DNA of 64,000 nt from Blastocatellia bacterium (lineage in GTDB: Bacteria; Acidobacteriota; Blastocatellia; Pyrinomonadales; Pyrinomonadaceae). The DNA lies in NCBI GenBank assembly GCA_033857635.1, contig JAWVDF010000022.1, positions 138,150 through 202,149 on the forward strand, given 5' to 3'. Shown piece after piece: positions 25,777-49,096 of this stretch. A model generated the notes under the pieces. That model ran no database searches and was not told the DNA's origin. It was given only the letters and a program-made list of their open reading frames with translations. The stretch's first letter is position 1. Every line of letters begins with the position of its first letter. Made by a program: the position numbers and the translations under genes.

Positions 25777-25798
25777 TGTTTTCAGCCCTCGCTTACGG

Positions 25799-26356: not shown

Positions 26357-26397
26357 GTTCTTTGGGTCAAGGGTACAACAGAACCTCGAATTACTGA

Positions 26398-26533
26398 GCG
26401 CGGACACGGCCGGGGCCGCCCGCTGGTGTGCCCGTCCTGTCCGCCAGCACGCGCAGCGCGCTTAACCGTTCGTGATTGAACCGAACGAATTGTTCGCGCT
26501 TCGCGCTCAGGCGGACAGGATGTCCGCGATCCG
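26398..26533. repeat. GCGGAC..GTCCGC / GCGCGCAGCGCGC inverted doublet
   Basis: Same family as 29762, 44570 and 61772. Confidence 0.75.
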
Positions 26534-27077: not shown

Positions 27078-27174
27078 TGATGACGTCAGTACGGCAGCGA
27101 CCGGGTCTCAATTCACGCAACGGTCTTGTTGTCCAGAGAGAACCCGGTCGCTACCGCTCCCGGTACTGACCTCA
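27078..27174. repeat. GGTCAGTACCGG...-family inverted doublet
   Basis: The right arm ACCCGGTCGCTACCGCTCCCGGTACTGACCTCAT ends 1 nt before the stop codon of 27175..27918. Confidence 0.8.
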
Positions 27175-27922: not shown

Positions 27923-28828
27923 TTATGGTTTGGCAGTCGCCGTGGGCGATGGCGAAGTGCTGACGGCGCTGGCCATCATGGCCTTCAGAATGGCAGCTAC
28001 CGCGCCGGTCAAGGCATCGATTTGTTGCCGCACCTTTTCCGGCGCTACCTGCTCGAACCCGGTCGGCAGTTCGAAAAGCGTTGGAGAGATGTCGGTTTTG
28101 ATGTCGCGCATCTCGGCCACGACCCGCGCGGCTTTCACTCCCTTAACATCTCCAGAGCTTTCCGCCAACATTTCGGCGCGCAGTGGCAGCCCGGTTTCTT
28201 TGTCGACATAGACAAATGCTTCTGCTTTCACTTCGCCGGCCTTAGTGTTGGTATTGGTCGTGGTGCTGTAGCGATATTTTTCCGCAGCGCGTCCGGCCAT
28301 GGGTCCTTCACCGGCGCGTTCGACGCCCTTAATCTTCTTCAAGTCTTCAACCAATTGACCGGGGGTGATCAATTTGTGAATCTGGATTCCCGTCGCTTCC
28401 TGCGTCAGTTCCGCATACTGTTTTCGGTTGGGAAGGATCACGTAATGCTTGTTGTTGTGATCCAAATAGACCAGCGGAGAGCCGTCGGGCAACTTAAACT
28501 CAACGCGGCGATCATCTCCATTCCGGGCCACTTGCACTGCCAGTGACGGAATCCCAATCGCCTTGTCGCCGCCTTCAGTCTCCATGCTGAAAGCTAACGT
28601 CGCGCTGTATTTCTCGGGCTCGCGCGCGTTGATGACCGGGCCGCTTTTATCGCTTTCGGAATTCGTGTTGCTATTAGCGTTGACGATTTGCGAATTCGAG
28701 TTGGCATTTGAATTAGCGTTCGCGTTTGCGTTCGAATTCGGCATCGGTTGGCAGGCGCTGATGGAAACCAGGAGCATCACTCCCAGCGCCAGCGAGCAAG
28801 TGTTTTGAAAGCCGCGGATTGTGAACAT
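27923..28828 (-). CDS. Lipoprotein with an Asn/Ser/Ala low-complexity linker, LolA-like fold suspected
   Basis: Lipobox VSISAC. NSNANANANSNANSNS linker. Confidence 0.6.
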   Translation of the reverse strand: MFTIRGFQNTCSLALGVMLLVSISACQPMPNSNANANANSNANSNSQIVNANSNTNSESDKSGPVINAREPEKYSATLAFSMETEGGDKAIGIPSLAVQVARNGDDRRVEFKLPDGSPLVYLDHNNKHYVILPNRKQYAELTQEATGIQIHKLITPGQLVEDLKKIKGVERAGEGPMAGRAAEKYRYSTTTNTNTKAGEVKAEAFVYVDKETGLPLRAEMLAESSGDVKGVKAARVVAEMRDIKTDISPTLFELPTGFEQVAPEKVRQQIDALTGAVAAILKAMMASAVSTSPSPTATAKP

Positions 28829-29013: not shown

Positions 29014-29116
29014 AGTCAACGGGGCGGTTGCGATCTCCGACCCAAATCATTTGACACCTTCCGCTGGTTAGCGTAAAAGGCCTTTGCCTTTCCGACTTCA
29101 ACCTAATGGTGACCTG

Positions 29117-29743
29117 ATGAAAAATGTTCTCCTGTTAGTTGCGCTCGTCCTGGTCGTTGCAGCCTGTAACCTGACCGACAAGTTTAAGAAGAGCGATACT
29201 TCGAATTCAAATTCTTCGTCGTCATCGGGAAACCCGTCGAAGATCGGAGACGATCCCGTAGAACAGCCCAACCCGACCGCAGCGCAGACGGCGGCCCTGG
29301 CCAATGGCCAGTCGGTGAAGTGGGATCAGCAGGGCATAACCTGGACGTTGCCCGCGAACTGGAAGAAACAGACTGTCACGAACGACTCGTTCAATTATGG
29401 TGCGGACGGCGCGTTCTTGATCGTCAGCATCTCGCCGATGGCGCCTGACTTCCCGACTGACATCAGCCTGAAGGCCTTTCATGAAGGGGCCAAGGTACGT
29501 TCGAAGAACGGTCAGGTAGATGAAGTGAAATGGCTCGAGCTGGACGGAGTGCGCGGTGTCGAGTTTCGCGAATCAAAGCCGCAGATGGCCGACGACATTC
29601 GCCGCCTGCAGTGGATGACCTATCGAAAGTATGCCGGTCAGACGCAGTTGGTAAATTTCATTCTGTCGGGAAGCGGCGACAATTTTGCCAAGCACCAGGA
29701 CGAGCTGTACGCGATCCTCTTCTCAACCAAACTTGTTCATTAA
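29117..29743 (+). CDS. Lipoprotein (hypothetical)
   Basis: MKNVLLLVALVLVVAAC lipobox followed by a Ser/Asn-rich linker. Confidence 0.6.
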   Translation: MKNVLLLVALVLVVAACNLTDKFKKSDTSNSNSSSSSGNPSKIGDDPVEQPNPTAAQTAALANGQSVKWDQQGITWTLPANWKKQTVTNDSFNYGADGAFLIVSISPMAPDFPTDISLKAFHEGAKVRSKNGQVDEVKWLELDGVRGVEFRESKPQMADDIRRLQWMTYRKYAGQTQLVNFILSGSGDNFAKHQDELYAILFSTKLVH

Positions 29744-29761
29744 GCCGGGAGCGCCGAAACG

Positions 29762-29893
29762 GAGCGCGGACATCCTGTCCGCCAGCGCGCGCAGCGCGCT
29801 CATACCCCTCGGTAAAAGCATGAGGAGCGAAGCACAATACTTCGCTCCTCATTTTTTCATCCTCAAATGCGGACAAGCTGTCCGCGCTCCCGG
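29762..29893. repeat. GCGGACATCCTGTCCGCCAGCGCGCGCAGCGCGC inverted doublet
   Basis: Read directly. Confidence 0.8.
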
Positions 29894-29896
29894 CGG

Positions 29897-30943
29897 CTAG
29901 TTCTTCCTAATGTAATTCCGATGCACCCAGGTATCTGGCTTCGCGCGGTCGCGAGTTTCGAAGAACACGTTGTCTTTTGATTCGCGAGTCACCATTTGCA
30001 CCCGCGATGAAACGTCTTTCTCCTTTTGATCAGCTCCTTTGGGCGAATCATCAAGAAAGCCCCTGACCGCGGCGGGCGCCGGGGCTTCAAATTTCTCGCC
30101 GCGTTTCAATTCTGCAACCGCCTCGATCGCGCTTGCTTGTAACAGCTTGGGCCAAAGCTTTTTGAACAGCGCACTGGAAGCATAAACATCTGCGCTGTTA
30201 ATCTTGCCGTTGATAGCAAACACATAACCAATGACGTCGGTCCGTCCATTAACGATACCGCCCAGTGCTTTGACATAGCTGTCGGCGCTCGCCTGCACCT
30301 GCTTATTTTCCAGAGCCAACTGGAAGCTGGTCGGTGAGGCGGCGCCGTTCACGCGCGTGCCGGTATTCGCGCTGAGTTTGTCCTGGGCCACGGCCACCTG
30401 CCGCCAAACTTCGCCCTGCGATTCGGCGGTCTTCGCCGCCAGCTTCAGCTCGCGTCCGGCGATGACGTTCGCGGAAGAATTGAAGACGGTTACTTCCTCT
30501 GTGCCGCGTTTACTCCAGCGGCCGTTCTCGACGCAGAAGGCCGAAATCGGAATCTTGCCCGAACGCGGCGGTAGAATCAGATCGACGGCCATCATGCGAT
30601 CCTGCTGGCCACCCTTCACGATGTCGCCTGACTGCACATAGACTTCTTCGCTTGAAATGTTTTCGATTGAAAGTTCGTTGACCGATCGCGTTTCGCGCAC
30701 GATCACTTTTCGCTGCACCAGGGCCTCCTGCAAAGTTATGAACGTCTGACCCTTGATCCTCTCTTTGCCGTGAATCAGAAACACTGTGAGGTTGCCCTGC
30801 GTAAACGGTCCCTCGAGGCCGTACTCATCCTTGCCTTGCGGGGTCTGCTCCGGATGAACACCCCAGGCGCCTGCGACCAGACTGAGCGGCGCGCCTATCA
30901 ACAACACCAGTCCTGCTACGAAACTAATCAAATTCGTCTTCAT
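29897..30943 (-). CDS. Secreted ARPP-1/DUF6569-like domain protein
   Basis: Signal peptide. GNLTVFLI...TLQEALVQRKVIVRE...ENISSEEVYVQSGDIVKGGQQDRM...FCVENGRW matches my recollection of the DUF6569 consensus. Confidence 0.5.
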   Translation of the reverse strand: MKTNLISFVAGLVLLIGAPLSLVAGAWGVHPEQTPQGKDEYGLEGPFTQGNLTVFLIHGKERIKGQTFITLQEALVQRKVIVRETRSVNELSIENISSEEVYVQSGDIVKGGQQDRMMAVDLILPPRSGKIPISAFCVENGRWSKRGTEEVTVFNSSANVIAGRELKLAAKTAESQGEVWRQVAVAQDKLSANTGTRVNGAASPTSFQLALENKQVQASADSYVKALGGIVNGRTDVIGYVFAINGKINSADVYASSALFKKLWPKLLQASAIEAVAELKRGEKFEAPAPAAVRGFLDDSPKGADQKEKDVSSRVQMVTRESKDNVFFETRDRAKPDTWVHRNYIRKN

Positions 30944-31234: not shown

Positions 31235-31262
31235 TTGACATTGACGTCCTCGGGACTATAAT
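31235..31262 (+). promoter_or_regulatory. Consensus sigma-70-type promoter TTGACA-N16-TATAAT heading the island
   Basis: TTGACA at 31235..31240 and TATAAT at 31257..31262. About 220 nt upstream of the ATG at 31486. Confidence 0.5.
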
Positions 31263-31485
31263 CCGCGATCTCTCGTAAGGCCTGTTCACGAGTGGGCACT
31301 CAACCTGCTCCCGTCAGTCGGCAGCTTGAGTCCGCAACTAACTAACCATCGCGGAAACGATAGCCGGATAGATTCAAGTCAAATCTTCCAGACCATAGGC
31401 TCCCGAACTCCGGTGGGTCGTTCGCCCGCGGATCTGGTATGAGCGGTTTGTCGGCGACCTTTTCAGTGAATACAGGATCCATTTC

Positions 31486-33420
31486 ATGGACGTAATACTA
31501 GAGGCAATCAACTTTAGTCACGACTCGAACCCGGCGACAATGGGGACGACTGATGGGTTCAGTATTCGAATGAATGAAACCCAAACTATAACGATCCCGG
31601 AATGGCAACGGAATAGCGGAATCCTACGAGGCTCGCCCGCGGCTTATGCGCGAGACACGATCGGTAATAACAAGGTCACCATTAAGGCTAGGTTCTGTTG
31701 CACGAATAAGGCGCTCGGAAAAATATTCGTGCAGGCGGTCGATGGGCACTCGGATCATTCTTCGGGGAGCGGCGCCGCCACTAACGTATTGGGCAGAGTT
31801 GAGGTAACGGAAGTTCCTCTGGTAAACGGTCGATCGAATTGGGTGCAAATGATCCTCGATGATGTCAGATTCAGCGCCGGCGTCGGTGCCAGCGATATCA
31901 TTTGGTGCTGGCAGTTCTCAGTCGACGCCAAGCGTTGGACGGGCTTTGCCACCACAACGCATAGAATCTACATCGTTTTGTGCTTACCAACCGAGCCGTG
32001 GGAACCGAAATCTATTCAACTCACAAATGTTCAGATCCCATGGGCTGAGGTTCTGGAACATGCATGCTTTTGGGCAGCCGGAGCCCAGGACATAGACGCC
32101 GCCGCGGGTAAAATCACGAAAGAAGTAAACGCCCTGGGATTCAGTAAGGTAACGTACTTCCAGAAGCCTCTCTATATCCAGGAAGGCACGGAAAACTTTT
32201 GCTGTACTGAGTTTCTCGACCTTCTCGGCGGGGGACCCGGCAAGGGAAATACAATGAACTGCTCTGATTGCGCGACTGTGGTTTCGACTTTCGCAAACAT
32301 CCTCGGTGCTTCACTCGCACAGTCGAGCATGGGCTATGACTTTTACATAAACCATGTTCTGAAAATCGGACAACGACATGACGATGGGGGCAGCTTTCAG
32401 GTGCATGAAGTAGCCTGGAAAGGCGACTGCACCAAAGACGATTCTCTGTTCGATGCCTGTCTTCATCTTGACGGGGACCCGGATCCGGCGAACGATCCAT
32501 TTGTTCCGCTGCTTCCGATTAACATTCCTTTTCTGGATCAGACGGGGGGATACCACTGTCACATCAAGAGAAAAAACGTCGGTAACCCCTGCGAGCCGGA
32601 CCCCTGTTCAAAGCAGCACCGGATGATAGGTACCTCACAGTTAAGAATCCGGAAAACCAGTCCAAACCACCTTCGGGCGCTAATAGATCTTTATCACTAC
32701 CCCTCCTGGAAGAGGGTTCGCTTGTCGAAGGAGCATCTCTTTTTCTGGCGTTCGTTCATCTCGGGCAAAGAAGCACCAGGTTGGCAGCTACAGCGAGTTC
32801 AGTCCTTCGATACCATCGGTGATATGCCGCCGACCAACGAATCTTTGTGGATGTTGCGCGACAGAAAGGAAACTCTGCTACGCATAAACACTTTTGAGTG
32901 CCGTTCCTTTGTTGCGGCCCACTCGTTCCTGCTGTCGCTCCTGGGCGAGTGCGATATCGCTTACATGAAGCGTGAAGCCGCGACCGAACGGAAGGCGTTT
33001 GGCGATGTCGCGTTCATGGATTTAGAGAGTACTTCGATCCTTCTTGCCAGAGGTAATATGATCGTGTCTGCCAGAAGCGCCGGCCCTGTCGCGGCTAATC
33101 TCGGCGAGTTCCTTCATCAATTTGACGTCGGACTAAAGTCCCCGCCGGATGTCGACCAGGAGATCGAGTACATGGATCGCTTTCGCTTTCCAGCGGACAA
33201 GTTTCATGTTGGCCAGGATGTGCCGCTGGCATTTCTCGGGGAATTTGACAATCAGGTTCAATACAGGTTTTTCGCAGAATCTGGCGAAGTGTTGCTGAAA
33301 GGTCAGCAGCTTTTTTACCGTCCGCAAGTTGCCGGTCTGCAGGAAGTCAACGCGTTTGGGATCGAAGCGGAACGAAAACCAAGAAAGCAAAAGCTAAGGA
33401 TATTAATCGGACACAGATGA
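31486..33420 (+). CDS. Transglutaminase-fold (papain-like Cys-His-Asp) protein, cytoplasmic, function unknown
   Basis: 644 aa. NCSDCATVVSTFANILG (Cys259/Cys262), FQVHEVAW (His307) and SLFDACL (Asp323) are spaced as in transglutaminase-like cores. No signal peptide. Confidence 0.6.
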   Translation: MDVILEAINFSHDSNPATMGTTDGFSIRMNETQTITIPEWQRNSGILRGSPAAYARDTIGNNKVTIKARFCCTNKALGKIFVQAVDGHSDHSSGSGAATNVLGRVEVTEVPLVNGRSNWVQMILDDVRFSAGVGASDIIWCWQFSVDAKRWTGFATTTHRIYIVLCLPTEPWEPKSIQLTNVQIPWAEVLEHACFWAAGAQDIDAAAGKITKEVNALGFSKVTYFQKPLYIQEGTENFCCTEFLDLLGGGPGKGNTMNCSDCATVVSTFANILGASLAQSSMGYDFYINHVLKIGQRHDDGGSFQVHEVAWKGDCTKDDSLFDACLHLDGDPDPANDPFVPLLPINIPFLDQTGGYHCHIKRKNVGNPCEPDPCSKQHRMIGTSQLRIRKTSPNHLRALIDLYHYPSWKRVRLSKEHLFFWRSFISGKEAPGWQLQRVQSFDTIGDMPPTNESLWMLRDRKETLLRINTFECRSFVAAHSFLLSLLGECDIAYMKREAATERKAFGDVAFMDLESTSILLARGNMIVSARSAGPVAANLGEFLHQFDVGLKSPPDVDQEIEYMDRFRFPADKFHVGQDVPLAFLGEFDNQVQYRFFAESGEVLLKGQQLFYRPQVAGLQEVNAFGIEAERKPRKQKLRILIGHR

Positions 33421-33526
33421 GGAAGTCTTCGGCGAACATCGTTTCGGCGAAGATGGATCCAGACAAACGACTGGTTAAAGATCGCTTGCAAGTCCTAACC
33501 AAAATTCGATAGGAGGAATAACAATT

Positions 33527-33970
33527 ATGCCACCACAATCGCTACAAGGAAATTGGCGTTGTCTAATCTTCACGAGCTCCGCGGCCAACCCGAAGTTGCC
33601 ACCATCACCCGATGGCATCTTCAGACTGGTAACAATCGGCAGCAACGGCAACGTAACGGACGGATATCACGACCTTGATGTGCCGTTAGGCGCACCACCA
33701 GTGTCCATAAAGATGACCGGGCAGGTGACTCCCCTCGGCATTGGATACTCAATTGTACTGGAGCACTTTGACTACGGAAGCACGACAACGAAGCGCCGGT
33801 ACGAAGGACTACTGGTATTTGATAGCCCAATTGAAACCAGACTTGTAATTACGGGTTTCAAGACGACTATACACCTGCCCTTAAAACGAACGGCGAAGAG
33901 CACCAAGGTCAAAACCATGGCGCTCGCTTTGGTCCAGGACGACGGCACGGTAGTCATAACCAGGCCTTAA
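33527..33970 (+). CDS. Small beta-rich hypothetical protein
   Basis: 147 aa. AGGAGGA RBS 8 nt upstream. No family recognised. Confidence 0.5.
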   Translation: MPPQSLQGNWRCLIFTSSAANPKLPPSPDGIFRLVTIGSNGNVTDGYHDLDVPLGAPPVSIKMTGQVTPLGIGYSIVLEHFDYGSTTTKRRYEGLLVFDSPIETRLVITGFKTTIHLPLKRTAKSTKVKTMALALVQDDGTVVITRP

Positions 33971-34130
33971 TGCGGATCCTCGAAGATATCTTTCTTGATT
34001 TCGCGCGAACCTCGATCTAATGTCGTCATCGATCATCGAGAGAAGCCCGAAGCCTTGATGACCCTCAAGCTGTCCGGCAACACCCGTCGTGGATCTGCCG
34101 GTTGGCCCCGGTCAGAGTTATGCGCCGAGG

Positions 34131-37100
34131 ATGATAACGTCTCGCTTAAGCCAGCGGATTTCAACCCTGTTTGCCCGGCGGCAAGCCGAGGCGCTGGTGC
34201 GCCTGAATAGCCGAATCCTACGAGGCCTTTTCAGAATGCTGTCGACCCTTGGCTGCGCGCTTAGCGTTTTCTTCGTCCTCAGCTCATGGCCGATGACTTC
34301 GCAGTCAAGGTTGGCCGCAAAGACCTTCGATCAACTTCCCTTACCAACAGTTGCACGATCGGGCTCGTCCCATCTGGACAATGTAAGTTCCAGCATTCCT
34401 CAAGACGGGATCAATTTATTAACCCGAGATCCAATCAAGCGGGAGATAACAGGAGGCTCTCTTCGGTCTTTCAGGGTTAGTGTCAGAGCGGGCGAGTATG
34501 TCCGTTTGCTCATAGAACAACAGGGAATCATCCTCCAAGCGACTCTCTTTAATGCTAGCGGCAGTCGCATTGCCGAAATGGATAGTCCGAGCGACGGTCA
34601 TGGGCCGATATATCTGTCAGCCATCGCGGCTGAATACGAGAACTACCGGCTTGAGGTTCGTTCCACGGAGTCCTGGGCGAATCCCGCCCGGTTCGAAGTA
34701 ATGATCGAGGAACAGCGTGAGGCGACGCCGGGAGACAGAGACCGGATCGCCGCGGAAATGAGTTTCGCTGAAGGACGGCGACTGGAGAAAAAAGTAACTG
34801 AGGAATCGCGACGGGCCGCGCTAAGCCAATACCAAAAGTCCCTTGAGATTTGGAACCGGCTGGGCGATTTTCATTGGCGTGCGATCACACTCTACTCTAT
34901 TGGATCCATCCACCGACGGTTGGGTGAGCTTGAGAACGCAAGAAAACTATTAGGACAGAGCCTAGACCCGGACCTGAGCAGCAGACTGAAGACCGATGAT
35001 TGGCGGTTAGTCGCGTCCGCTTGGAACGATCTCGGCCTTACGGCGGCAGATTTGGGTGATGAAAAGAGCGCCTTCGAATCACTCGATAAGGCACTGAGGC
35101 TTTACCGGGATCACGGTGACAGGCGAGGAGAGGCCAGTGCCCTCAATAACATTGGTTACACCTACAAGGCGCTCGGCCGATTAAGCGAAGCAGTGGAATA
35201 CTTTGAAAAGGCCCTGCCCCTCAGGCGGGCCGAAAACGATCAGCTTCGTGAATATAATGTCGTCAACAATATTGGTGCCACGTACGACGCACTGGGAGAG
35301 CCGCAGAAGGCACTGGACTCGTTAGCCCAAACCCTACAGGTCTGGAGAGAACTTTATAAACAAGACAAACTAGGTGATCCGGATCGATTGGCCAGCGCGC
35401 TGAACAACACAGCCGCAGCTTACGACCGAGTAGGGGAATCGCAGAAGGCGCTGGACTCCTATAAAGAGGCGTTGGCAATATCCCGCAAGAGCGGGAACAT
35501 GCAACGGCAGGCTTCCACGCTGAATAACATGGGCAACTTTTATGACAACCTGGGCGATCCGGCTCTGGCCCTTGAATACTACAATCAGGCTTTGGCTCTA
35601 ATAAGAAACAACGTGAAGGACCCGAAAGCCGAGGCGAATATCTTAACTCAAATTGGCCAACTTCAGATCGCTGAAGGAAACCTGACTCGAGCTTTGGAGT
35701 ATTTCAAACGGGCGAGCGCCATTCCGCAAATCAGTCAGCGGGAAGCTGAAACTCTAAACAACCTGGGCATGGTGTATTCCCTGGAAGGAAACCCTGGTGC
35801 GGCGCTTGAGCTTCACAACGACGCGCTGGCAAAGGTTACACGCAGGCCAAACAATGACCTCAGGGGCGAGGCGGCGACTCTGAATAAGCGGTCGGAAGCA
35901 TACCGACTGCTGGGTAACCAGTCGCTGGCGCTGGCGGACCTGACGACCGCCGTTTCGTTGTGGAGAACCCTTAAGGATCAACGCGGCGAAGCGATAGCTT
36001 TGCAAGCCATCGCCGTGGTCGAGCGCGACCGGAGCAATCTAAGAGAGGCGCTGAAATTCATTGCGGAGGCAACGAACATTGTCGAATCGATGCGCACACG
36101 GATCTCCAGCCACCAACTGCGCGCCACTTACTTTGCAACCCAGGAAAACTACTACCAGCTAAACATCGATCTCAATATGAAGCTTTATCAGGACGAACGA
36201 TCTCCTGAGCGCCTGGCTGCCGCGCTCGAGGCCAGTGAGAGATCGCGCGCCCGCAGCCTGATGGATACACTTGTCGAAGCTCATGCCAATATTACCGAAG
36301 GGGCTGACCCCGCCTTGCTCCGTCAGGAGCGTGAAATTGAACAGAAGCTCCGGGCCAAGTCAGAAGCACAAATTCGGTTGCTGAATATCAAACACGATGA
36401 GCAGGAAGTTAAGTCAATCGCCAGGGATATCAGTAATCTCATCATCGAATCTGAACAGGTCCGGGACAAGATCAGAATAAGCAGCCCAAAATACGCGCAT
36501 CTAACCCAACCCCCGACGCTCACGCTAGCAGAAATCCAGCAATCCCTCGATCCCGACACGCTCATGCTGGAATATTCACTTGGTGACAAGCGGAGCTACG
36601 TCTGGGCCGTCACCCCCAGTTCGCTCAATGGGTTTGAATTGCCGGAGAGAGCGTTGATTGAAAAAACCGCGCAGCGGGTAACCACGGCCCTCGTGGAACG
36701 CGGCCGTAAAGTAAAAGGTGAGACTGAACAACAATGGCGGTATCGTCTCGGTCGGGCTGAGACTGAATACGTTGAAGCATCTGCCACGCTCGGCAAAATG
36801 GTCCTCGAGCCAGTGGCGGCGCTGCTCGGGAACAAGCGACTCGTCATCGTCGCTGACGGAGCTTTGCAGCTACTGTCGTTCGGGGCTTTGCCGGCGACGG
36901 ATGATCAGCGCCCGCTGATCGAAGACCACGAGATTGTCTACCAGGCTTCGGCTTCGGTGTTAGCCCTGCAACGAAGCGAGTTGAAGAACCGCAGACCTGC
37001 CCGCCATGCTGTGGTAGTGCTCGCCAATCCTGTGTTTGACAAAGAGGACGAACGGGTTAAGTCGGCGACCTCGGGAAGAGGCCGCAACCGAATACCAGCC

Positions 37101-37784
37101 GCACCGCTGAAGAAGGACACCGGCGCCGAGGGAGATTCAGCTGGAGCAACTAGTACCCGGAGAACCGATGTGAGCCGCGCTCTCGATGACATTGGACTCA
37201 ACCGATTTCCCTCGTTACCTTTATCACGCATGGAAGCAGATGCCATCGTCAAGCTCGTGCCAAAAGGAGAGGGCATGGCCGCGCTCGGCTTTAATGCCAG
37301 TCGTGCGACCGCGACCAGTCCGGAACTGTCGAACTATCGCATAGTTCATTTTGCCACCCACGGCGTCGTAGATTTCACCAACCCTGAGCTGTCTGGCATC
37401 GTGCTTTCAATGGTTGATGATAAGGGCCAGCTCCAGGATGGGTACCTCCGGCTCCACGACATCTACAACCTCAATCTACCGGCAGATCTAGTCGTGCTCA
37501 GCGCTTGCCAGACCGGCGTTGGTAAACAGATCAGGGGCGAAGGTCTGATCGCGTTGACGCGTGGTTTTATGTATGCGGGCGCCAAAAGCGTCGTAGCCAG
37601 CTTGTGGAAGGTCGATGATGCGGCGACGGCGGCATTGATGGCTGAGTTCTACAAACAGATGTTCACCAATGGACTCAAACCAGCGGCGGCGCTCCGTACC
37701 GCCCAGCTCAACCTATCGCAGCAGAAACGCTGGCGCTTACCTTATTACTGGGCCAGCTTTGTGCTTCAGGGCGAATGGAAGTAA
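34131..37784 (+). CDS. TPR-repeat CHAT-domain (caspase-fold) protein with an N-terminal signal anchor
   Basis: Hydrophobic segment LSTLGCALSVFFVLSSW. At least 10 TPR-like units (LNNIGYTYKALGRLSEAVEYFEKAL and similar). C-terminal CHAT domain with HFATHG (His codon 37359..37361) and LSACQTG (Cys codon 37506..37508). Start is ambiguous among 34089 GTG, 34131 ATG and 34236 ATG. Confidence 0.85.
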   Translation: MITSRLSQRISTLFARRQAEALVRLNSRILRGLFRMLSTLGCALSVFFVLSSWPMTSQSRLAAKTFDQLPLPTVARSGSSHLDNVSSSIPQDGINLLTRDPIKREITGGSLRSFRVSVRAGEYVRLLIEQQGIILQATLFNASGSRIAEMDSPSDGHGPIYLSAIAAEYENYRLEVRSTESWANPARFEVMIEEQREATPGDRDRIAAEMSFAEGRRLEKKVTEESRRAALSQYQKSLEIWNRLGDFHWRAITLYSIGSIHRRLGELENARKLLGQSLDPDLSSRLKTDDWRLVASAWNDLGLTAADLGDEKSAFESLDKALRLYRDHGDRRGEASALNNIGYTYKALGRLSEAVEYFEKALPLRRAENDQLREYNVVNNIGATYDALGEPQKALDSLAQTLQVWRELYKQDKLGDPDRLASALNNTAAAYDRVGESQKALDSYKEALAISRKSGNMQRQASTLNNMGNFYDNLGDPALALEYYNQALALIRNNVKDPKAEANILTQIGQLQIAEGNLTRALEYFKRASAIPQISQREAETLNNLGMVYSLEGNPGAALELHNDALAKVTRRPNNDLRGEAATLNKRSEAYRLLGNQSLALADLTTAVSLWRTLKDQRGEAIALQAIAVVERDRSNLREALKFIAEATNIVESMRTRISSHQLRATYFATQENYYQLNIDLNMKLYQDERSPERLAAALEASERSRARSLMDTLVEAHANITEGADPALLRQEREIEQKLRAKSEAQIRLLNIKHDEQEVKSIARDISNLIIESEQVRDKIRISSPKYAHLTQPPTLTLAEIQQSLDPDTLMLEYSLGDKRSYVWAVTPSSLNGFELPERALIEKTAQRVTTALVERGRKVKGETEQQWRYRLGRAETEYVEASATLGKMVLEPVAALLGNKRLVIVADGALQLLSFGALPATDDQRPLIEDHEIVYQASASVLALQRSELKNRRPARHAVVVLANPVFDKEDERVKSATSGRGRNRIPAAPLKKDTGAEGDSAGATSTRRTDVSRALDDIGLNRFPSLPLSRMEADAIVKLVPKGEGMAALGFNASRATATSPELSNYRIVHFATHGVVDFTNPELSGIVLSMVDDKGQLQDGYLRLHDIYNLNLPADLVVLSACQTGVGKQIRGEGLIALTRGFMYAGAKSVVASLWKVDDAATAALMAEFYKQMFTNGLKPAAALRTAQLNLSQQKRWRLPYYWASFVLQGEWK

Positions 37785-37788
37785 TTCT

Positions 37789-37819
37789 TCGACACTAAAC
37801 ATCTTATCTGGACTATAAT
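37789..37819 (+). promoter_or_regulatory. Possible promoter (TCGACA-N19-TATAAT) upstream of the island sigma gene
   Basis: TATAAT at 37814..37819 sits inside the same 14-nt string GGACTATAATCCGC found at the island head. The -35 element and spacing are suboptimal. Confidence 0.3.
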
Positions 37820-37926
37820 CCGCACTTGTTGAGTGCCCTGGATGTCTAACGAAGTCAAAGTGCCACCTCATGACAGCTGCGGAATCAAAATCCCCGTACC
37901 GCGACTGAGATAACCCGGATCCGCTA

Positions 37927-38532
37927 ATGTCGAAGACGCTCCACGCCCAATGGACCTTAACGCACCAGGCTTTGGAGAAGCTGCTTGCCTGCTTATCGCC
38001 AGATCGCGACGAGGCGGGTAAGCAATACGAGGCCATCAGAATCAAACTCGTTCGATACTTCGAACGTCGTGAGATTGACTCTGTCGAGGATCGCGCAGAC
38101 GACGTTATTAACCGCGTCGCCCGGAGAATTGATGAGGGCCAACACATCGACAATGTAATTGCCTATGCGTATAGGGTTGCGTACCTGGTGTTTTTGGAAG
38201 CGCTAAAGGAACCTGAGCAGGCTGAGCTTGATTGGGATACTGCTCCGGCACCTACACCGGAACCACCTTTGGAGGAAACCGAGCAGGATATCCGCCAGCG
38301 CTGTTTTGATGATTGTCTCGCGAAATTGACAGACGAGAGTCGCAACCTGATTCTGATGTACTACCAGGAGGATGGGCGTGCCAAGATTGACCTCCGAAAG
38401 CGATTGGCCAACAAGCTGACCATACAATTAAATGCCCTGCGGATCCGGGCCCATAGAATCCGAGTAGGTCTTGAAGAGTGCATCGAAGAGTGTCGTGCCC
38501 GACATGCCCTGGTGCGAAATGTAACCGGCTGA
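37927..38532 (+). CDS. ECF-type RNA polymerase sigma factor (divergent)
   Basis: DRADDVINRVARRI (region-2-like) and SRNLILMYYQEDGRAKIDLRKRLANKLTIQLNALRIRAHRIRVGL (region 4 HTH). Paralog of 25799..26356. Confidence 0.75.
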   Translation: MSKTLHAQWTLTHQALEKLLACLSPDRDEAGKQYEAIRIKLVRYFERREIDSVEDRADDVINRVARRIDEGQHIDNVIAYAYRVAYLVFLEALKEPEQAELDWDTAPAPTPEPPLEETEQDIRQRCFDDCLAKLTDESRNLILMYYQEDGRAKIDLRKRLANKLTIQLNALRIRAHRIRVGLEECIEECRARHALVRNVTG

Positions 38533-38560
38533 ACGTCACTTCTGTTTAGGGGTAGTTTAA

Positions 38561-39526
38561 TTGACAGTACCGACCAACAGAGAAGCGAATGAGATAAATC
38601 ACCTCCCTGCTGACGATCGTGAGTTTGAGGAACTTGAGATCGCCGAAGAGGAACTGATCGATGCCTACCTTCGCGACGAGCTCTCCGACGACGAGCGTAA
38701 ACTCGTCGAAAAGGGATTGAGGAGTTCTTCCCGGTTGGTCGAACGATTCCACTTCGCCAAGATGCTGGCGCAGGCTGCCTCATCTGTTCCCCAGAACCAA
38801 ACTTCTGGGTCTGCCGCAGAATTCGAAGCGTCCCTTGCTCAACATGACCCAAAGCGGGTTAAGCCTCCGTGGTGGAAGGCGTTCTTAGGTTTCTCGTTCG
38901 TGCAGCTACCAGCGTTCCGCATAGCGCTCGGCGCTTGTGTCCTCCTTGTCTTGATCGGAAGTGCGGCCTTGTTTGCCGGATGGATGAAGTTGCGCAGCGA
39001 AACGCAGCGACTTGACTCCGAACGAGTCGCGCTGGACAAGCAAAGGCAAGAGTTAGAAAAAACATCTGCAGAGCAACAATCAAAGTCGGAACAACTCTCT
39101 GCCGAACTGCAAAAGGAAAGGCAGCGAGAGCAGGATCAAAAGCTGATCGAGGCACTCAAGCGGTCGCAAAAGCAAAACGACCAGTCTAATTCGCCGGCGC
39201 CAATAGTGGCGTCGTTGCTTCTGCTTCCAGGCTCGACGCGAGACAGCAGCGGAGGCAACGAACTAATCGTCCCGTCCGGCGCATCTACGGTTAGACTCAA
39301 ACTTGGCCTCGAAGCTAACGATTACTCGAGCTATGGTGCCGTTATCAAAAACGCCCAGGGCGTCAAAGTTTTTCAGCGGAACCGATTAAAGGCACGCTCC
39401 GGCAAGCTGACAGTCCAAGTTCCCGCCCAGCGATTGCCGCCCGGCGATTACACCGTCCACGTAAGCGGGGTCACCTCAGCCCGAGTTGTTGAGAGCGTTC
39501 ACGATTACGCGTTTCGAGTGCGGTAA
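38561..39526 (+). CDS. Single-pass anti-sigma-like protein with extracytoplasmic coiled coil and beta domain
   Basis: TTG start 29 nt after the sigma stop. N-terminal EELIDAYLRDELSDDERKLVE, TM IALGACVLLVLIGSAALFAGW, a Gln/Glu/Lys coiled coil and a C-terminal beta domain ending YAFRVR. Confidence 0.6.
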   Translation: MTVPTNREANEINHLPADDREFEELEIAEEELIDAYLRDELSDDERKLVEKGLRSSSRLVERFHFAKMLAQAASSVPQNQTSGSAAEFEASLAQHDPKRVKPPWWKAFLGFSFVQLPAFRIALGACVLLVLIGSAALFAGWMKLRSETQRLDSERVALDKQRQELEKTSAEQQSKSEQLSAELQKERQREQDQKLIEALKRSQKQNDQSNSPAPIVASLLLLPGSTRDSSGGNELIVPSGASTVRLKLGLEANDYSSYGAVIKNAQGVKVFQRNRLKARSGKLTVQVPAQRLPPGDYTVHVSGVTSARVVESVHDYAFRVR

Positions 39527-39744
39527 AGCCTAACCTCCTGTTTCCGACCTTGCCCTGACAAAGAATCCTTCAACTCACCTGTCTGTTCCTGAGCCCAGAG
39601 TTATAGCTCCCGCTTCCTTCTTTCACCTTACCTGTTGCTTTCGGCGGCAAATCAATCCGTGAAATGTTTTTACTGTTCTCCCCACTAAGAAACGAAGTGA
39701 AAGTTTCGCTTATGTTTTTGATGAACCGTTTTCGGGAGGAAATT

Positions 39745-41817
39745 ATGAAAACCTTTGGCGTGTTGTTTCTGAGTCTATTAATGCTGCTCTATGGGATGCC
39801 AGTAACCGCTACTGCCCAGGGATCCCGAGAAGTATTTGCTCTTCCGGATGGAACAACTGGCGAGGCTTATCGCGTCAACATCGAAGCGATCCTGCGCGAA
39901 AGATATCAGCTGAAATTAGAGACTGACGCCCGCGCGTCTGTGTTTCGCTGGGCTCTCGCCCAGGGAGAAGTCCCTCCCGGTCTTTTCGTCCGCGCCAACG
40001 GAACAATTGTCGGCTCGCCTCGCGTGTCGCGCGCTGAACCATACCGCTTCCAGCTCAAGGTACTGGATCTCTCCCAATCAAAGGCCGATGCCCTGACGAT
40101 TGATTTCACAATAGTCGTTTCCTCGTCACAAGTTCGGCTGGCCCACATCAGAGTGCCGAGGCTGGTGTTGATTGAGGGGTCGAACTTGGAATCAAGAATC
40201 CAAACAGGAAGACAAATCGCCGATAAGACGGCCGGCAATGCTTTTCCGCGTGAGAACGTTGTTGAATCAACTGTCGCGGCTGCAATGCCTTCACCAGGCA
40301 AACGGTGGACTGCCGGAAGCGTCTATGACTCGATGTTGCGGCGCAATGGTGATACGGAGTCGCCAATGGTCTCTGTCGCAAATTCTCCCCGTCCACTTGC
40401 CGCGGTTCCGCCAACAGTAAACTGCGCGCAGGAATGTGACCCAACTCCGCCTCCAGATCCAAATAAGGATTTCATTATCGACGCGGTCACCGGCGCGACG
40501 AGGGGCAAGACCAAATTCGATCGCGGAGAGCGCACACGCATTATCATCAAGAACAAGAATCCTTTTCTGTATGAGTATCGCTTATCGATAGAGGAAGAGG
40601 CTGTGGCTGAGCCGGCGTTAGTGGGTTTTCTGGATCTTCTACCGGTGGGAAAAGGGACGTTTGAAACCGCCAAAACCATCGATACGGCTGCGGCCGTTAG
40701 CGCCATGATGGTTGAAAACCAGATCAAGGCAGCAAAGCAGGCGCCTGCTTGTCCTTTGCTGGACGCCCTTCTGGCGGCTGAGAATGTTTTGGCTCAAAGT
40801 GAAACTGCGTTGAAAGCCCAGGTGGACGGACAAACCGATGCCTTCAATGGCACCCAGACACAATACAAACAATTAAAGGCCGCGCTCACAAATCCGGGAG
40901 CCCAATGTCCCGGCCTCTGCAGTGACGCTGACACTTTGTCGGACGCTCTTCGGGGCTATCTCAACGGCAGCAAGGCTTCCTTTGAGCAATTCACAAAGGA
41001 CGTAGCGAAGTTTGAGGAGCGCGCTAATGCATTTAGCACCAACGTTGCCGATCTCAAAGACAATACCCCAGCATGTGCTCAGAAAATCGACGATGCGAGA
41101 CTTGCGCAGTTGGCAGGCCACTATGTTGAAGTCGCGAATACTCTGAAGGAGAGTCTGAGCAAGTTGCAAGAGGGACGAAAGGGATTCGACACTGCCGCCA
41201 AATCAATTGAGAAGGTTTTCGCAACGGCGGGCGCCTTTTACGAGGTCCGTGAGACTGGCGACTTTGACCTACCAACCAACGTCAAGATCAAGCTGGAGCG
41301 TAGAGAGATTTCTCAGGAGAAAGCTGAGTTTGCTAAGTGGGTTGACACTAAAGTGAACTTTGGCGGCGGGCCGCGATTCGCCTTAGCCGGCGGGCTTGTG
41401 GCGTCATTGCTCGAAAGGCCGGAGTACGAACGGGTATCCACCGTCCTCAACGGACAACCTGTCAACATAGTTGGCTTAAAGCGAACGTCCAGCACTCGCC
41501 TCCTACCGCTGTTAATGCTTCATGCCAGAATCTACGACACCAAATCGAGTTTCATCGACGGCATTCACTTTTCGGTGGGCCTTACCGCTAAGCCGAACAG
41601 TGAGGGTACCAGCGCGGAGTTCCTATTAGGCCCTTCCATCAGCCTCATCGAAGGGCGCATGTTTTTCACCGCTGGAGGCTATCTTGGAAGGAAGCAGGAA
41701 CTCCAGGGCAACTTGACGCCCGGATCCCAAATTCCGAAAGACTTCGGGGATGCGCTGCCAATTAGCGAGCACTACGTATGGAAACCTGGCTTCGCGATAA
41801 CTTACAAGATCAAGTGA
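39745..41817 (+). CDS. Large secreted protein: N-terminal Ig-like (He_PIG-type) domain, Cys-containing helical middle, beta-rich C-terminus
   Basis: GGGAGGA RBS. Signal peptide MKTFGVLFLSLLMLLYGMPVTATAQG. Ig-like motif GEVPPGLFVRANGTIVGSP. The last ~170 aa show an alternating-hydrophobic pattern. Confidence 0.6.
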   Translation: MKTFGVLFLSLLMLLYGMPVTATAQGSREVFALPDGTTGEAYRVNIEAILRERYQLKLETDARASVFRWALAQGEVPPGLFVRANGTIVGSPRVSRAEPYRFQLKVLDLSQSKADALTIDFTIVVSSSQVRLAHIRVPRLVLIEGSNLESRIQTGRQIADKTAGNAFPRENVVESTVAAAMPSPGKRWTAGSVYDSMLRRNGDTESPMVSVANSPRPLAAVPPTVNCAQECDPTPPPDPNKDFIIDAVTGATRGKTKFDRGERTRIIIKNKNPFLYEYRLSIEEEAVAEPALVGFLDLLPVGKGTFETAKTIDTAAAVSAMMVENQIKAAKQAPACPLLDALLAAENVLAQSETALKAQVDGQTDAFNGTQTQYKQLKAALTNPGAQCPGLCSDADTLSDALRGYLNGSKASFEQFTKDVAKFEERANAFSTNVADLKDNTPACAQKIDDARLAQLAGHYVEVANTLKESLSKLQEGRKGFDTAAKSIEKVFATAGAFYEVRETGDFDLPTNVKIKLERREISQEKAEFAKWVDTKVNFGGGPRFALAGGLVASLLERPEYERVSTVLNGQPVNIVGLKRTSSTRLLPLLMLHARIYDTKSSFIDGIHFSVGLTAKPNSEGTSAEFLLGPSISLIEGRMFFTAGGYLGRKQELQGNLTPGSQIPKDFGDALPISEHYVWKPGFAITYKIK

Positions 41818-41950
41818 AGTCTTGGAAGAGTGGCTTGCGAACTCGGACTTTCCTCTGGGAATTTCCATCATGAGACGGAGGAGGTGAGTCTCCGAGTTCG
41901 CGAGTCATCAGTGACAAACGCAAGTCTCAAATCTCAAAGGAGCAACTATC

Positions 41951-42271
41951 GTGTCTCTGACTAACGCAGGTCTTACAACTTTCCAGATCTATTTGTGGTG
42001 TGTGTTGGGTATTGTGGTGAGCATCGCGCTGCCTATCTTGCGCGGGTTGCTTCCCAAACCACCGCCGCTGCCGGGTGCTGCGGCCTTGCCGGCAGGCTTC
42101 CTGGCCGCTCTGTGGATCCACGCCAGGCCTTATCTGGTCGTCGGTCTCTTTTCTCTGCTGACCGGAATCCTGATCGTGGCCTTTACCTATGGATCTCTGG
42201 CGGACTGGAGAGCTGCCCTTCTCGCCGGTTACGCCTGGGATTCCACATTGCAGAAGCTAACCAAACCTTAA
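41951..42271 (+). CDS. Small three-TM membrane protein (hypothetical)
   Basis: GTG start preceded by AAGGAG. Three hydrophobic segments. Confidence 0.45.
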   Translation: MSLTNAGLTTFQIYLWCVLGIVVSIALPILRGLLPKPPPLPGAAALPAGFLAALWIHARPYLVVGLFSLLTGILIVAFTYGSLADWRAALLAGYAWDSTLQKLTKP

Positions 42272-42352
42272 ACGCCGCCGCTTAAGTAAACCTTACTTTC
42301 GACGGCTCCAGCCCTGCGGGAAAACCGGCCCTATTGAGAAGGAGAAAATGAA

Positions 42353-43426
42353 ATGCCACTTTCAAATGATGTGATCGAAGCTAAGCGAACCTTGAGTTCA
42401 CGGTTACTAAGCATAGGAGCAGAGCGTGGTGTAGTAGGCAGGTTTCCCGTATTGAATGTCATGGCTGCCGCAGAGTCCGCCGGACAAAATGTGCATTCTG
42501 TCGGTGTCGGATTCAAAATAGTGGAAGGTAAGCTGACTGAGGAGCCCTGCGTTCGTCTTTACGTAGTTCAGAAACTGGCAGCATCGCTCCTGTCGCCAAA
42601 CGATCTCTTGCCAAGCGAAGTCGACGGTATCACCACAGATGTCATCGAGTCGCCGCCGGCATTCTTCCTCCCAAACGGCGGTCAGGCGGCCGGTCCTCCG
42701 GCTGCGGCTTCAGAGGCCTGTACTAATGAACGACGAAAACGCCAGCGACCTGTTATGGCGGGTATTAGCTCTGCCCATTTTCAGGTGACCGCCGGAACAA
42801 TCGCATGCTTTTGTCGTTCGACGGCGGAGGAAGACGAGCCGGGTGCAGTATTCGTTCTGAGTAATAATCATGTGTTCGCCGACGTTAACAGAGCGCAAAT
42901 TGGTGACGACTTGTATCAGCCCGGTCCAGCAGACGGCGGTACCAATAGCGACAGGTTCGCAGTGCTTCATCGATTTGTTCCCATCCAGCTTGGCGGCCAC
43001 ACACCCAATCGGGTTGATGCGGCCATTGGCAAACTCTTGCCCGGAGTACAAACGGACCCTGAGATTTGCACGATCGGCCACATTACGGGAATTGGCGTAG
43101 CCGAGGAAACCACGCCAGTATGCAAGCATGGCAGGACTACGGGATACACCGAGGGCTCTGTATTTGATCCTTCCATAGATTCGCTTGTGGGAATGGATCA
43201 CAGTAATTCCAGTATTGTGGCCCTTTTCCAAAACCAGCTTCGCATTGACGTCAAACCACCTTTTTCGGCTTTTGGGTTGGGTGGCGATAGCGGTTCACTT
43301 GTGGTCAACCAGGAAACTCGCGAGGCGGTTGGGCTTTACAACGCCGGGCCCTCCGGGGGAGAGTATGGCCTTGCCAATCGAATTCAAGATGTCCTGGCCG
43401 AGATGCAAATAGAACTCCTGACCTAA
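42353..43426 (+). CDS. Chymotrypsin-fold (S1-like) serine protease with an N-terminal pro-domain-like module, no signal peptide
   Basis: Candidate triad LSNNHVFA (His), RVDAAIG (Asp), GLGGDSGSLV (Ser). AGGAGAA RBS. Confidence 0.7.
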   Translation: MPLSNDVIEAKRTLSSRLLSIGAERGVVGRFPVLNVMAAAESAGQNVHSVGVGFKIVEGKLTEEPCVRLYVVQKLAASLLSPNDLLPSEVDGITTDVIESPPAFFLPNGGQAAGPPAAASEACTNERRKRQRPVMAGISSAHFQVTAGTIACFCRSTAEEDEPGAVFVLSNNHVFADVNRAQIGDDLYQPGPADGGTNSDRFAVLHRFVPIQLGGHTPNRVDAAIGKLLPGVQTDPEICTIGHITGIGVAEETTPVCKHGRTTGYTEGSVFDPSIDSLVGMDHSNSSIVALFQNQLRIDVKPPFSAFGLGGDSGSLVVNQETREAVGLYNAGPSGGEYGLANRIQDVLAEMQIELLT

Positions 43427-43451
43427 TCGGGTCGGTTGTTGAGGTGTTGAC

Positions 43452-43673
43452 ATGGGCAGAACGCTGGACGAGGTTAGGGAACTGCTATCAACCAAGTACC
43501 TTGGAAAGGCAGGGATTCATTCAGTTGGGATCAGCCGGGCAGAGAATGCCGTGCGGGTGTATGTTCAGCCGGAAGCCGAAGATGAACTGAAGGGCGTCTT
43601 GAAAGAGATTGAACGGGAGGCCGCCCCGTACAAGGTTGTCCCCGTCAAGTCGGATCGTTCTTCAATCACCTAA
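43452..43673 (+). CDS. Small protein resembling the N-terminal module of the adjacent S1 protease
   Basis: GIHSVGISRAENAVRVYVQPE aligns by eye with NVHSVGVGFKIVEGKLTEEPCVRLYVVQK of 42353..43426. GAGGTG RBS. Confidence 0.45.
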   Translation: MGRTLDEVRELLSTKYLGKAGIHSVGISRAENAVRVYVQPEAEDELKGVLKEIEREAAPYKVVPVKSDRSSIT

Positions 43674-44423: not shown

Positions 44424-44534
44424 TTGGGTGGTTTATTCATTATCTCAAGGTTAGCTGCGCGGATCGTCGATGCAGTCTAATTCAAAGGTCTTCATTTCCC
44501 AAAATGGCGGCGGTCTTTCCGCTTCAGACAAGCA

Positions 44535-44726
44535 CGATCCACGAAACCACACTAAGCCGGGAACAATCGGATCGCGGACATCGTTGTCCGCCTGAGCGCG
44601 AAGCGCGAACAGCCTCTGCGGTGGTCACAAACCAAGAGGGTGAGCGTCCTTGCGGACGCTGGCGGACAAGGATGTCCGCGATCCGACTCCGATCCGGGAT
44701 TTCCATTCGTGTGATTTCGTGGATCG
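44535..44726. repeat. Nested repeats: a CGATCCACGAAA... doublet enclosing a GCGGACATC..GTCCGC doublet (44570..44684)
   Basis: Outer arms at 44535..44557 and 44706..44726. Inner arms GATCGCGGACATCGTTGTCCGCCTGAGCGCG and GGCGGACAAGGATGTCCGCGATCC. Confidence 0.8.
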
Positions 44727-44737
44727 TCTTTCTGCTG

Positions 44738-46394: not shown

Positions 46395-46560
46395 ATGCTC
46401 AAGAGGCCAAAAGCCCAAGGGCAATGTGCCAAAGCCAAGTTCAAGTTGCCAAGCTCAAGGTCCACTTGCCAAAGCTCAGATTCAAGTTGCCAAAGCCCAA
46501 GGTCAAGTTCCAAGCTCAAGGTTAAGTTGCCAGGCTCAAGTTCAAGTTGCCAAAGCTCAA
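46395..46560. repeat. Degenerate tandem array, about 8 units of about 20-21 nt (GCCAAAGCTCAAGGTCAAGTT-like)
   Basis: Lies in the hyuA-hyuB spacer. Produces the LELWQLELE...-type pseudo-translation in the ORF track. Confidence 0.8.
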
Positions 46561-48944: not shown

Positions 48945-48974
48945 TTCGGACGTGCGCCTAAGGTAACCATTTTC

Positions 48975-49070: not shown

Positions 49071-49096
49071 ATCCTCTTTGACATCGCACATCCTGA

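Follow-up and report, generated by a model that had tools for sequence, protein, structure and literature searches.

Here we describe a three-gene locus, made up of a TPR-CHAT protease, a divergent extracytoplasmic function (ECF)-type sigma factor and a single-pass anti-sigma factor, that lies in a 64-kb stretch of DNA from a Blastocatellia bacterium, an acidobacterium of soil (contig JAWVDF010000022.1). We call this whole stretch the window, and all coordinates are positions in it. The trio sits inside a block of nine co-directional open reading frames (ORFs) at 31.2-43.7 kb, whose other members we call g1, g2 and g6 to g9; a first-pass annotation of the sequence had listed these nine ORFs, and all of them are found at the coordinates it gave. 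The sigma factor is 100% identical to a protein of a metagenome-assembled genome (MAG) from Blastocatellia (Acidobacteriota). The genes on which the argument turns, including a second sigma/anti-sigma pair in the same window, are the following.

34089-37784, plus strand: signal-anchored TPR-CHAT protease (ATG 34131 is an alternative start), recognised by Pfam CHAT and TPR
37927-38532, plus strand: divergent ECF-type sigma factor of 201 amino acids (aa), recognised by sub-cutoff NCBIfam matches and by AlphaFold2 (AF2) plus Foldseek
38561-39526, plus strand: single-pass anti-sigma factor of 321 aa, recognised by transmembrane (TM) prediction and by zf-HC2 in its family
25799-26407, minus strand: sigma factor of the second, paralogous pair, of the same family, 42% identical and with both CxxxC motifs
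24880-25851, minus strand: anti-sigma factor of the second pair, again of the same family

The protease matches Pfam CHAT (PF12770, clan CD peptidases) with 243.7 bits against a cutoff of 24 (E 3.5e-72) and has many TPR matches besides (TPR_12, E 1.3e-55). From the N-terminus onward it is laid out as a TM helix at aa 46-64, a beta-rich region, TPR repeats over roughly aa 240-700 and the CHAT domain at aa 897-1229. Checked by translation, the His/Cys dyad of the CHAT domain is intact, with H1091 at codon 37359-37361 and C1140 at 37506-37508, the codon that the first-pass annotation had named as the catalytic cysteine. An alignment of 66 CHAT domains shows His216 and His220 without exception and Cys269 in at least 90% of the sequences, and conservation of the dyad across this set argues for retained catalysis. 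Eight Lys or Arg residues precede the hydrophobic segment at aa 46-64, and an N-terminal hydrophobic segment is present in 45 of the 57 full-length CHAT relatives. When the 66-sequence profile is compared with the PDB, the best match is DdvA (8rot_B, E 0.0024), with separase and Csx29 following at E 0.3-0.5. These three are reached only by the profile: the CHAT domain alone finds no match among PDB sequences, and the whole CHAT protein, like one of the fused proteins described below, finds TPR proteins only.

The identification of the second gene as an ECF-type sigma factor is borne out, and the protein proves to be a divergent one. It fails the Pfam thresholds for Sigma70_r2 and Sigma70_r4 (Sigma70_r4_2, E 0.02), while in NCBIfam it matches TIGR02989 at E 7e-12, under that model's cutoff, and TIGR02937 with 32.5 bits against a cutoff of 42.9. 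The AF2 model (100 homologs, pLDDT 84.9) has two helical domains, for which Foldseek returns SigL, SigH, AlgU and sigmaE at E 6.5e-4 to 1e-2, and isolated sigma-4 domains match with a TM-score of ~0.7. Given the sub-cutoff NCBIfam matches and the ECF matches by fold, we take the protein to be a real but divergent ECF-type sigma factor. Its family comprises 1,532 clusters at 50% identity (E<=1e-30), and the family profile finds no PDB chain at E<=1. Two CxxxC motifs (C126/C130 and C185/C189), about 59 residues apart, lie on the helices that flank sigma-4 and are shared by 80 of 81 family members; this four-cysteine arrangement suggests a metal or redox site within the promoter-binding domain.

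The third gene had been read as a single-pass, anti-sigma-like protein, which the data support: one TM helix is predicted at aa 121-139, and zf-HC2 matches 46 of the 72 family members. The window protein itself has a weak zf-HC2 match (E 0.012) and a match to the anti-sigma model NF052375. It consists of a cytoplasmic N-terminal domain, the TM helix, a coiled-coil linker and a C-terminal beta domain. There is no Cys in the N-terminal domain of the window protein, and the 72-sequence alignment has no conserved Cys or His in that domain. The beta domain opens with L221-x-P-G-x-x-R227, in which Arg227 is conserved in 97% of the 72 sequences. Several clan-CD proteases cleave after Arg, and this preference, together with the conservation of Arg227, makes that residue a candidate P1 position.

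How these genes are distributed was followed in related genomes. A scan with the sigma alignment over one genome per GTDB species gave 171 relatives, of which 80 were fetched and combined with L001 and L002 into a set of 82 loci; the fetched loci are nearly all from Acidobacteriota, chiefly Pyrinomonadaceae and Blastocatellia. The presence of each window protein was counted by tblastn against these first 82 loci, and four loci (L083-L086) were added later. The sigma factor is present in 82 loci, the CHAT protein in 77 and the anti-sigma factor in 68; g1 is present in 6, g6 in 3, and g2, g7, g8 and g9 in none. These counts do not agree with the earlier claim that the nine genes form one conserved system. 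The claim that CHAT, sigma and anti-sigma form a functional module fares well, since the gene order of the trio is kept in most of the loci. CHAT mostly comes first, then sigma and then anti-sigma, and the genes are separated by some tens of bases. Where CHAT and anti-sigma are separate proteins (the split loci), CHAT typically ends 12-330 bp ahead of the sigma gene and the anti-sigma gene usually starts 3-130 bp past it, with a slight overlap in a few. In 62-68 loci the anti-sigma gene is the immediate downstream neighbour of sigma. By architecture, 54 loci are split, 7 are fused and 6 are convergent. Overall, at least 70 related genomes keep the trio, some of them with a fusion. Judged by sequence comparison, then, the robust unit is the trio, and the nine-gene island is a lineage-specific elaboration of it.

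It is fair to ask whether the adjacency of the three genes means anything more than inherited synteny in one Blastocatellia slot, running from ARPP-1 to thymidine kinase (TK), in which CHAT would be uncoupled from the sigma pair. ARPP-1 and TK do flank the module in many loci, and most of the loci come from a single class. However, the adjacency is kept in the convergent arrangement and in different flanks, several paralogous copies of the module occur per genome, and an independent precedent exists in Myxococcota. The fusion proteins, to which we now turn, disfavour the synteny-only reading as well, and we consider it very improbable.

In seven loci (L048, L055, L065, L067, L072, L078 and L081) the sigma gene is followed by a single protein of 1188-1211 aa. 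Its N-terminus gives a weak zf-HC2 match and is followed by a TM helix (~aa 108-144), then by TPR repeats and, at the C-terminal end, by CHAT. A comparison of the fused N-termini with the split anti-sigma family by hhalign gives a probability of 100% (E 9.3e-40) over the sigma-binding domain and the TM helix, and in a rough neighbour-joining tree of the sigma factors the fused and split forms are interspersed. Such fusions indicate that CHAT and the anti-sigma factor are functionally linked, and they would set CHAT across the membrane from the sigma-binding domain, that is, in the periplasm. The earlier proposal had required CHAT and the anti-sigma C-terminus to share a compartment, and the predicted N-terminal anchor of CHAT and the fusions both agree with this. 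We regard the coupling of CHAT to the sigma/anti-sigma pair, in what is predicted to be the same compartment, as well supported by these comparisons. An extracytoplasmic TPR-CHAT protein is predicted from the anchor at its N-terminus, from the positive-inside bias and from the existence of fused forms.

A precedent for this arrangement is DdvA of Myxococcus xanthus, a transmembrane anti-sigma factor with a periplasmic TPR-CHAT part of ~900 residues, which is paired with the ECF sigma factor DdvS (PDB 8rot and 8rw5; PMC11506125, PMC6061681). The intact TPR-CHAT of DdvA blocks RseP until it is removed, and the authors propose signal-induced self-cleavage by CHAT in place of a site-1 protease (PMC11506125, PMC6061681). 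DdvA-like proteins were found by them only in Myxococcota and one Comamonas (PMC11506125, PMC6061681). Like DdvA/DdvS, the window locus unites an ECF-type sigma, a single-pass anti-sigma and a TPR-CHAT that has the His-Cys dyad. The fused layout itself occurs in the 7 related acidobacterial loci, and among PDB sequences it is DdvA that the CHAT profile matches best. The proposed logic is likewise shared, with CHAT as a site-1 protease ahead of RseP. With so direct a precedent, the earlier description of the locus as a new system cannot be kept. The differences are nevertheless several. Protease and anti-sigma are two membrane proteins in the window and one polypeptide in DdvA, and the window anti-sigma has a coiled-coil and beta ectodomain of its own. 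DdvA carries a CHCC zinc site, whereas the window anti-sigma family has no conserved zinc ligands, and the window sigma is a member of a separate family, which has four Cys around sigma-4 and whose profile reaches no PDB chain at the threshold given above. The regulon of DdvA/DdvS is a CBASS/CRISPR defence island, whereas the window locus and its flanks have no Pfam or PADLOC defence matches. Finally, the phylum is Acidobacteriota.

The mechanism that we infer, and to which we give about an even chance, is a three-gene extracytoplasmic signalling module of a split DdvA/DdvS type in which CHAT acts as the site-1 protease of the anti-sigma factor. The cytoplasmic N-terminal domain of the anti-sigma would hold the sigma factor at the inner membrane, and the TPR-CHAT protein would be anchored in the same membrane by its N-terminal helix, with the TPR array and the caspase-like domain in the periplasm. 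An extracytoplasmic cue, probably sensed by the TPR or the N-terminal beta region, would then lead CHAT, through His1091/Cys1140, to cut the anti-sigma ectodomain or its juxtamembrane linker, with Arg227 as the candidate P1 residue. The remainder would be degraded by an RseP-type site-2 protease and by proteases in the cytoplasm, and the sigma factor would be freed to act on its putative regulon.

Several observations weigh against this mechanism. About 10 sigma/anti-sigma pairs lack an adjacent CHAT gene, as does the second pair in the window (24880-26407), which lies ~5 kb upstream of g1 on the opposite strand and was overlooked in the first-pass annotation; pairs of this kind imply that CHAT is not always needed in cis. 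The second pair may rely on the one CHAT protein in trans, or it may function without CHAT. Among the 57 CHAT relatives, 12 fall below the hydrophobicity threshold, and the positive-inside bias of the family is moderate (N-side richer in 30, C-side richer in 12). In DdvA, moreover, the CHAT site is incomplete, lacking three helices, and proteolysis is unproven (PMC11506125, PMC6061681).

One alternative takes up some of these points. The trio could be functional while CHAT is not the protease of the anti-sigma factor: CHAT might be a sensor or scaffold that gates another site-1 protease or RseP by steric hindrance, or it might cleave other envelope proteins while the sigma pair monitors the outcome or feeds back. 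The bulky TPR-CHAT of DdvA, which blocks RseP and has the truncated active site just mentioned, is in keeping with such a role, as are the pairs without CHAT, and the beta domain that forms the anti-sigma ectodomain, folded and conserved, could serve as a binding partner. Two facts speak for the protease instead, namely the His/Cys dyad kept across 66 sequences, with its argument for retained catalysis, and the fused forms, in which the protease is part of the very polypeptide that needs removal. We hold this non-proteolytic or indirect role to be unlikely, though a serious candidate.

The first-pass annotation had compared the locus with the type III-E CRISPR system, Craspase, and its account of that system is correct: Csx29 cleaves Csx30, an inhibitor of an ECF-like sigma (PMC10028731). 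Craspase is a CRISPR-bound system of the cytoplasm, in which RNA-guided Cas7-11 provides the activation and the substrate, Csx30, is soluble (PMC10028731). The two have in common a TPR-CHAT protease with genetic linkage to an ECF-like sigma and to an inhibitor that binds such a sigma, as well as the protease-to-sigma logic; unlike Craspase, the CHAT protein of the window carries a membrane anchor and is predicted to lie in the periplasm. Among the Pfam matches of the proteins scanned, which span 24.9-48.8 kb, there is neither Cas7-11 nor any other Cas family, and the window has no repeat array. With the NCBIfam models the scores are 16 bits for Csx29 (NF041237, cutoff 300) and 14.9 bits for the III-E sigma (NF041236, cutoff 100). 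As an analogy Craspase is the more distant one, and DdvA/DdvS is closer.

Two further comparisons place the locus among known switches. Classical regulated intramembrane proteolysis (DegS/RseP-RseA-sigmaE; PrsW/RasP-RsiW) likewise has a single-pass anti-sigma, with a sigma-binding domain in the cytoplasm and another domain outside it, on which a dedicated site-1 protease acts first. There, this enzyme is a serine protease or metalloprotease whose gene lies elsewhere, whereas the candidate site-1 protease of the window is a caspase-like cysteine protease of clan CD that carries a TPR sensor and is encoded within the locus itself. The group ECF54 has CHAT, carboxypeptidase and subtilase proteins in its genomic context and is said to lack an anti-sigma factor (PMC8999054). 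A CHAT protein in a conserved neighbourhood and a proposed proteolytic control are common to both; the window family differs in being nearly always accompanied by a cognate anti-sigma. Searches of the literature for CHAT with ECF, anti-sigma or Acidobacteria return only the DdvA, Craspase and SAVED-CHAT papers and the ECF54 remark; none of these describes a free-standing CHAT protein that has a separate anti-sigma as its partner, or the acidobacterial family reported here.

The locus is thus apparently an undescribed, split form of a known switch type. We also put forward a wider reading, tentatively and with more doubt than confidence: a stand-alone, membrane-anchored, periplasmic caspase-like protease would act in trans as the site-1 protease dedicated to a separate anti-sigma. 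It would control a large unclassified ECF-like family that has its centre in Acidobacteriota, counts at least 1,500 clusters at 50% identity and is marked by a four-Cys sigma-4, and a variable cytoplasmic partner with a cysteine-protease fold (transglutaminase-like or C11, see below) may complete the removal of the anti-sigma. If true, this would be a new class of regulated-proteolysis signalling and a natural two-component form in which to test the unproven hypothesis, drawn from DdvA, of CHAT as a site-1 protease. Because protease and anti-sigma are separate here and a single chain in DdvA, cleavage can be tested in trans with active-site mutants. TPR-CHAT-linked sigma control would reach beyond a few Myxococcota and take in a large family of the Acidobacteria, which are abundant and poorly studied soil bacteria. 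The sigma family is one that has been overlooked, as standard Pfam models miss the window sigma, and it has four invariant cysteines in its promoter-binding domain. The locus would also add to the examples of bacterial caspase-like proteases that transduce envelope signals without being part of a CRISPR system.

We now consider the remaining genes of the block, which are as follows.

31486-33420, plus strand: g1, a 644-aa multidomain transglutaminase-fold protein with no signal peptide, recognised by its triad, AF2 and Foldseek
33527-33970, plus strand: g2, 147 aa, no TM helix or signal peptide, no family match
39664-41817, plus strand: g6, a secreted, lineage-specific protein with likely start ATG 39745 and signal peptide MKTFGVLFLSLLMLLYGMPVTATAQG
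41951-42271, plus strand: g7, a 106-aa membrane peptide with 2-3 TM helices, lineage-specific
42353-43426, plus strand: g8, a NAL1-like S1-fold serine protease, recognised by NAL1_N and its triad
43452-43673, plus strand: g9, a 73-aa partner of g8 in a conserved two-gene module

The Cys-His-Asp transglutaminase fold ascribed to g1 is confirmed, with C259, H307 and D323 invariant in 63 homologs and a fold match by Foldseek. The AF2 model (pLDDT 93.1, pTM 0.93) has protein 4.2, TG3, factor XIII and TG2 as its top Foldseek matches, at E 3e-10 to 1e-6 and probability 1.0; in Pfam g1 has no match, Transglut_core included. It is predicted to have the full four-domain layout of the animal transglutaminases (beta-sandwich, core, two beta-barrels). 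Its homologs are all unannotated, and shorter forms of ~400 aa occur in MAGs labelled Promineifilaceae and Acidimicrobiales. Depending on the locus, the slot upstream of CHAT is filled differently. It holds g1 in 6-7 of the first 82 loci and a Peptidase_C11 protein (clostripain family, cytoplasmic, Pfam E 4e-25) in ~29, for example in L005, L009, L041, L044, L059 and L022 (11887-13623), and other proteins too occupy this same-strand slot. Two different cysteine-protease-type folds are therefore found in the same place. Counterparts of g2, ORFs of 112-148 aa, occupy the same position in the g1-containing loci. On this distribution g1-g2 is a variable upstream partner that lies outside the conserved module.

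The description of g6 as a large secreted protein agrees with its N-terminal hydrophobic segment and with the signal peptide predicted from ATG 39745. The protein has a weak Ig-like domain (He_PIG, E 1.5e-4, under cutoff), a long helical region and a beta-rich C-terminus, and its homologs occur in just 3 of the first 82 loci and in L083; the sole homolog found for g7 is also in L083. For g8, the claim of an S1-like serine protease holds in its invariant H173, D222 and S313 (within GDSGS). Its secretion is not predicted, as g8 has no signal peptide. The protein matches NAL1_N with 31.5 bits against a cutoff of 27 and Trypsin_2 at only E 0.15, and its family has more than 3,173 homologs, at 55-86% identity. 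The first-pass annotation had taken g9 for a stand-alone copy of the g8 N-terminal module. This similarity is not significant (BLASTP E 0.23), and g9 is better described as a conserved small partner of g8, for its homologs follow g8 homologs in L083, L085, L086 and the alphaproteobacterium Pelagibius litoralis (L084, 8001-9339). In Pelagibius litoralis g9 is 38% identical and no CHAT or sigma gene is called within 8 kb on either side. By these occurrences g8-g9 is a separate, widespread and highly conserved two-gene module.

Could the nine genes nonetheless be one defence or conflict system, in which the freed sigma turns on g6-g9 as effectors and g1 is a further enzyme? The order CHAT, sigma, anti-sigma, ~700-aa protein, ~100-aa protein, g8, g9 is found again in three metagenomic contigs from closer relatives, where the flanks differ, and in L085 g8-g9 again adjoins a block of C11, CHAT, sigma and anti-sigma. 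A 12-nt block, AACGAAGTGAAA, is moreover conserved upstream of g6 in the window and of the g6 homolog in L083 (~7470). Against this stand the tblastn counts, with g2, g7, g8 and g9 absent from the first 82 loci and g6 in 3, the occurrence of the widespread g8-g9 without CHAT or sigma, and the upstream gene in L083 and L086, which is not g1. L085 shares the TK-hyuB-hyuA flank, so that its g8-g9 adjacency may be inherited synteny; PADLOC gives no significant match, and g8 lacks an export signal. TK, finally, directly follows the anti-sigma gene in at least 12 loci, and the window thus has g6-g9 where those loci have nothing. We think such a nine-gene system distinctly unlikely. The earlier suggestion that g6-g9 are the regulon or effectors of the sigma factor finds no support, given the same TK adjacency, the occurrence of g8-g9 without the module and the lack of any sigma-specific promoter in our searches. 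As far as comparison of the loci goes, g6-g9 is cargo between the anti-sigma gene and TK, confined to a few close relatives.

The promoters of the block bear on how the trio may be expressed. Two elements are found.

31235-31262, plus strand: promoter-like TTGACA-16-TATAAT, 12/12 of the sigma-70 consensus, ~220 nt upstream of g1
37810-37823, plus strand: -10-like element GGACTATAATCCGC, just behind the stop codon of CHAT, 104 nt ahead of the sigma start

The 14-mer GGACTATAATCCGC also lies within the g1 promoter (31253-31266), and ACTATAATCCGC has exactly two occurrences in the window. The g1 promoter and its ~220-nt leader are conserved between the window (31235-31485) and L001 (3830-4073); the leader has no Rfam match and may be structured or act as a regulatory RNA. 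In 18 cases TATAAT or TACAAT followed by [CG][CG] precedes the sigma gene, and TTGACA-type, housekeeping-looking promoters stand ahead of the C11 genes in other loci. Housekeeping-type promoters of the g1-CHAT operon and of the sigma gene fit constitutively made sensor parts, and not CHAT as an induced output. No sigma-specific promoter or regulon motif emerged from the promoter searches: the only 14-mers common to sigma-upstream and other intergenic regions come from the window and L001 (the g1/sigma promoter 14-mer). An enrichment of dyads was rejected as a promoter signal, being dominated by the conserved C-terminal coding sequence of CHAT. We also observe AACGAAGT[C/G]AAAGT ahead of both the sigma gene (~37848) and g6 (39712-39725), for which ~0.5 occurrences are expected by chance in the window.

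The composition of the block had been read as that of an AT-rich, repeat-free island. It does hold no real repeat copy between 31.2 and 43.7 kb, while repeat families occupy many of the other intergenic gaps. Those outside the block are families of short, palindromic repetitive extragenic palindrome (REP)-like repeats, at 16254-16351, 24251-24844, 26415-26533, 27133-27175 and 29753-29801, at 44514-44730, 48851-49136, 49622-50296 and 61764-61887, and at other positions. It is also the lowest-GC 12.4-kb stretch of the window, and its third-position GC (GC3) is below that of the flanks, but the dip is just ~2 points (0.536 inside vs 0.557 outside). The absence of NTPase, nuclease and integrase is upheld, as no such Pfam family is among the nine proteins, and no repeat array lies inside the block. 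PADLOC gives no credible or significant defence match in the locus or its flanks, the matches to JukA (anti-sigma, E 1e-4) and ZorA (g6, E 2e-4) being weak and partial and rejected as such, and an Rfam scan of 24-46 kb returns nothing credible. We likewise reject a horizontally acquired island, because the GC dip is so small and the ARPP-1 and TK flanks recur in related genomes.

These flanks are of a housekeeping kind, with ARPP-1 upstream and TK followed by hydantoinase B and A downstream. The ARPP-1 domain gene (29897-30943, minus strand) and the unannotated genes at 29084-29743 (plus strand), 27923-28828 (minus strand) and 27175-27918 (minus strand) lie beside the CHAT module in 8-18 related loci, which reflects either conserved synteny or a neighbouring system. 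On the other side, a tandem repeat with units of ~20 nt occupies 46415-46559, within the 5' extension of the hydantoinase B ORF and ahead of its Pfam-matching part; the true start codon of hydantoinase B is probably downstream of the repeat.

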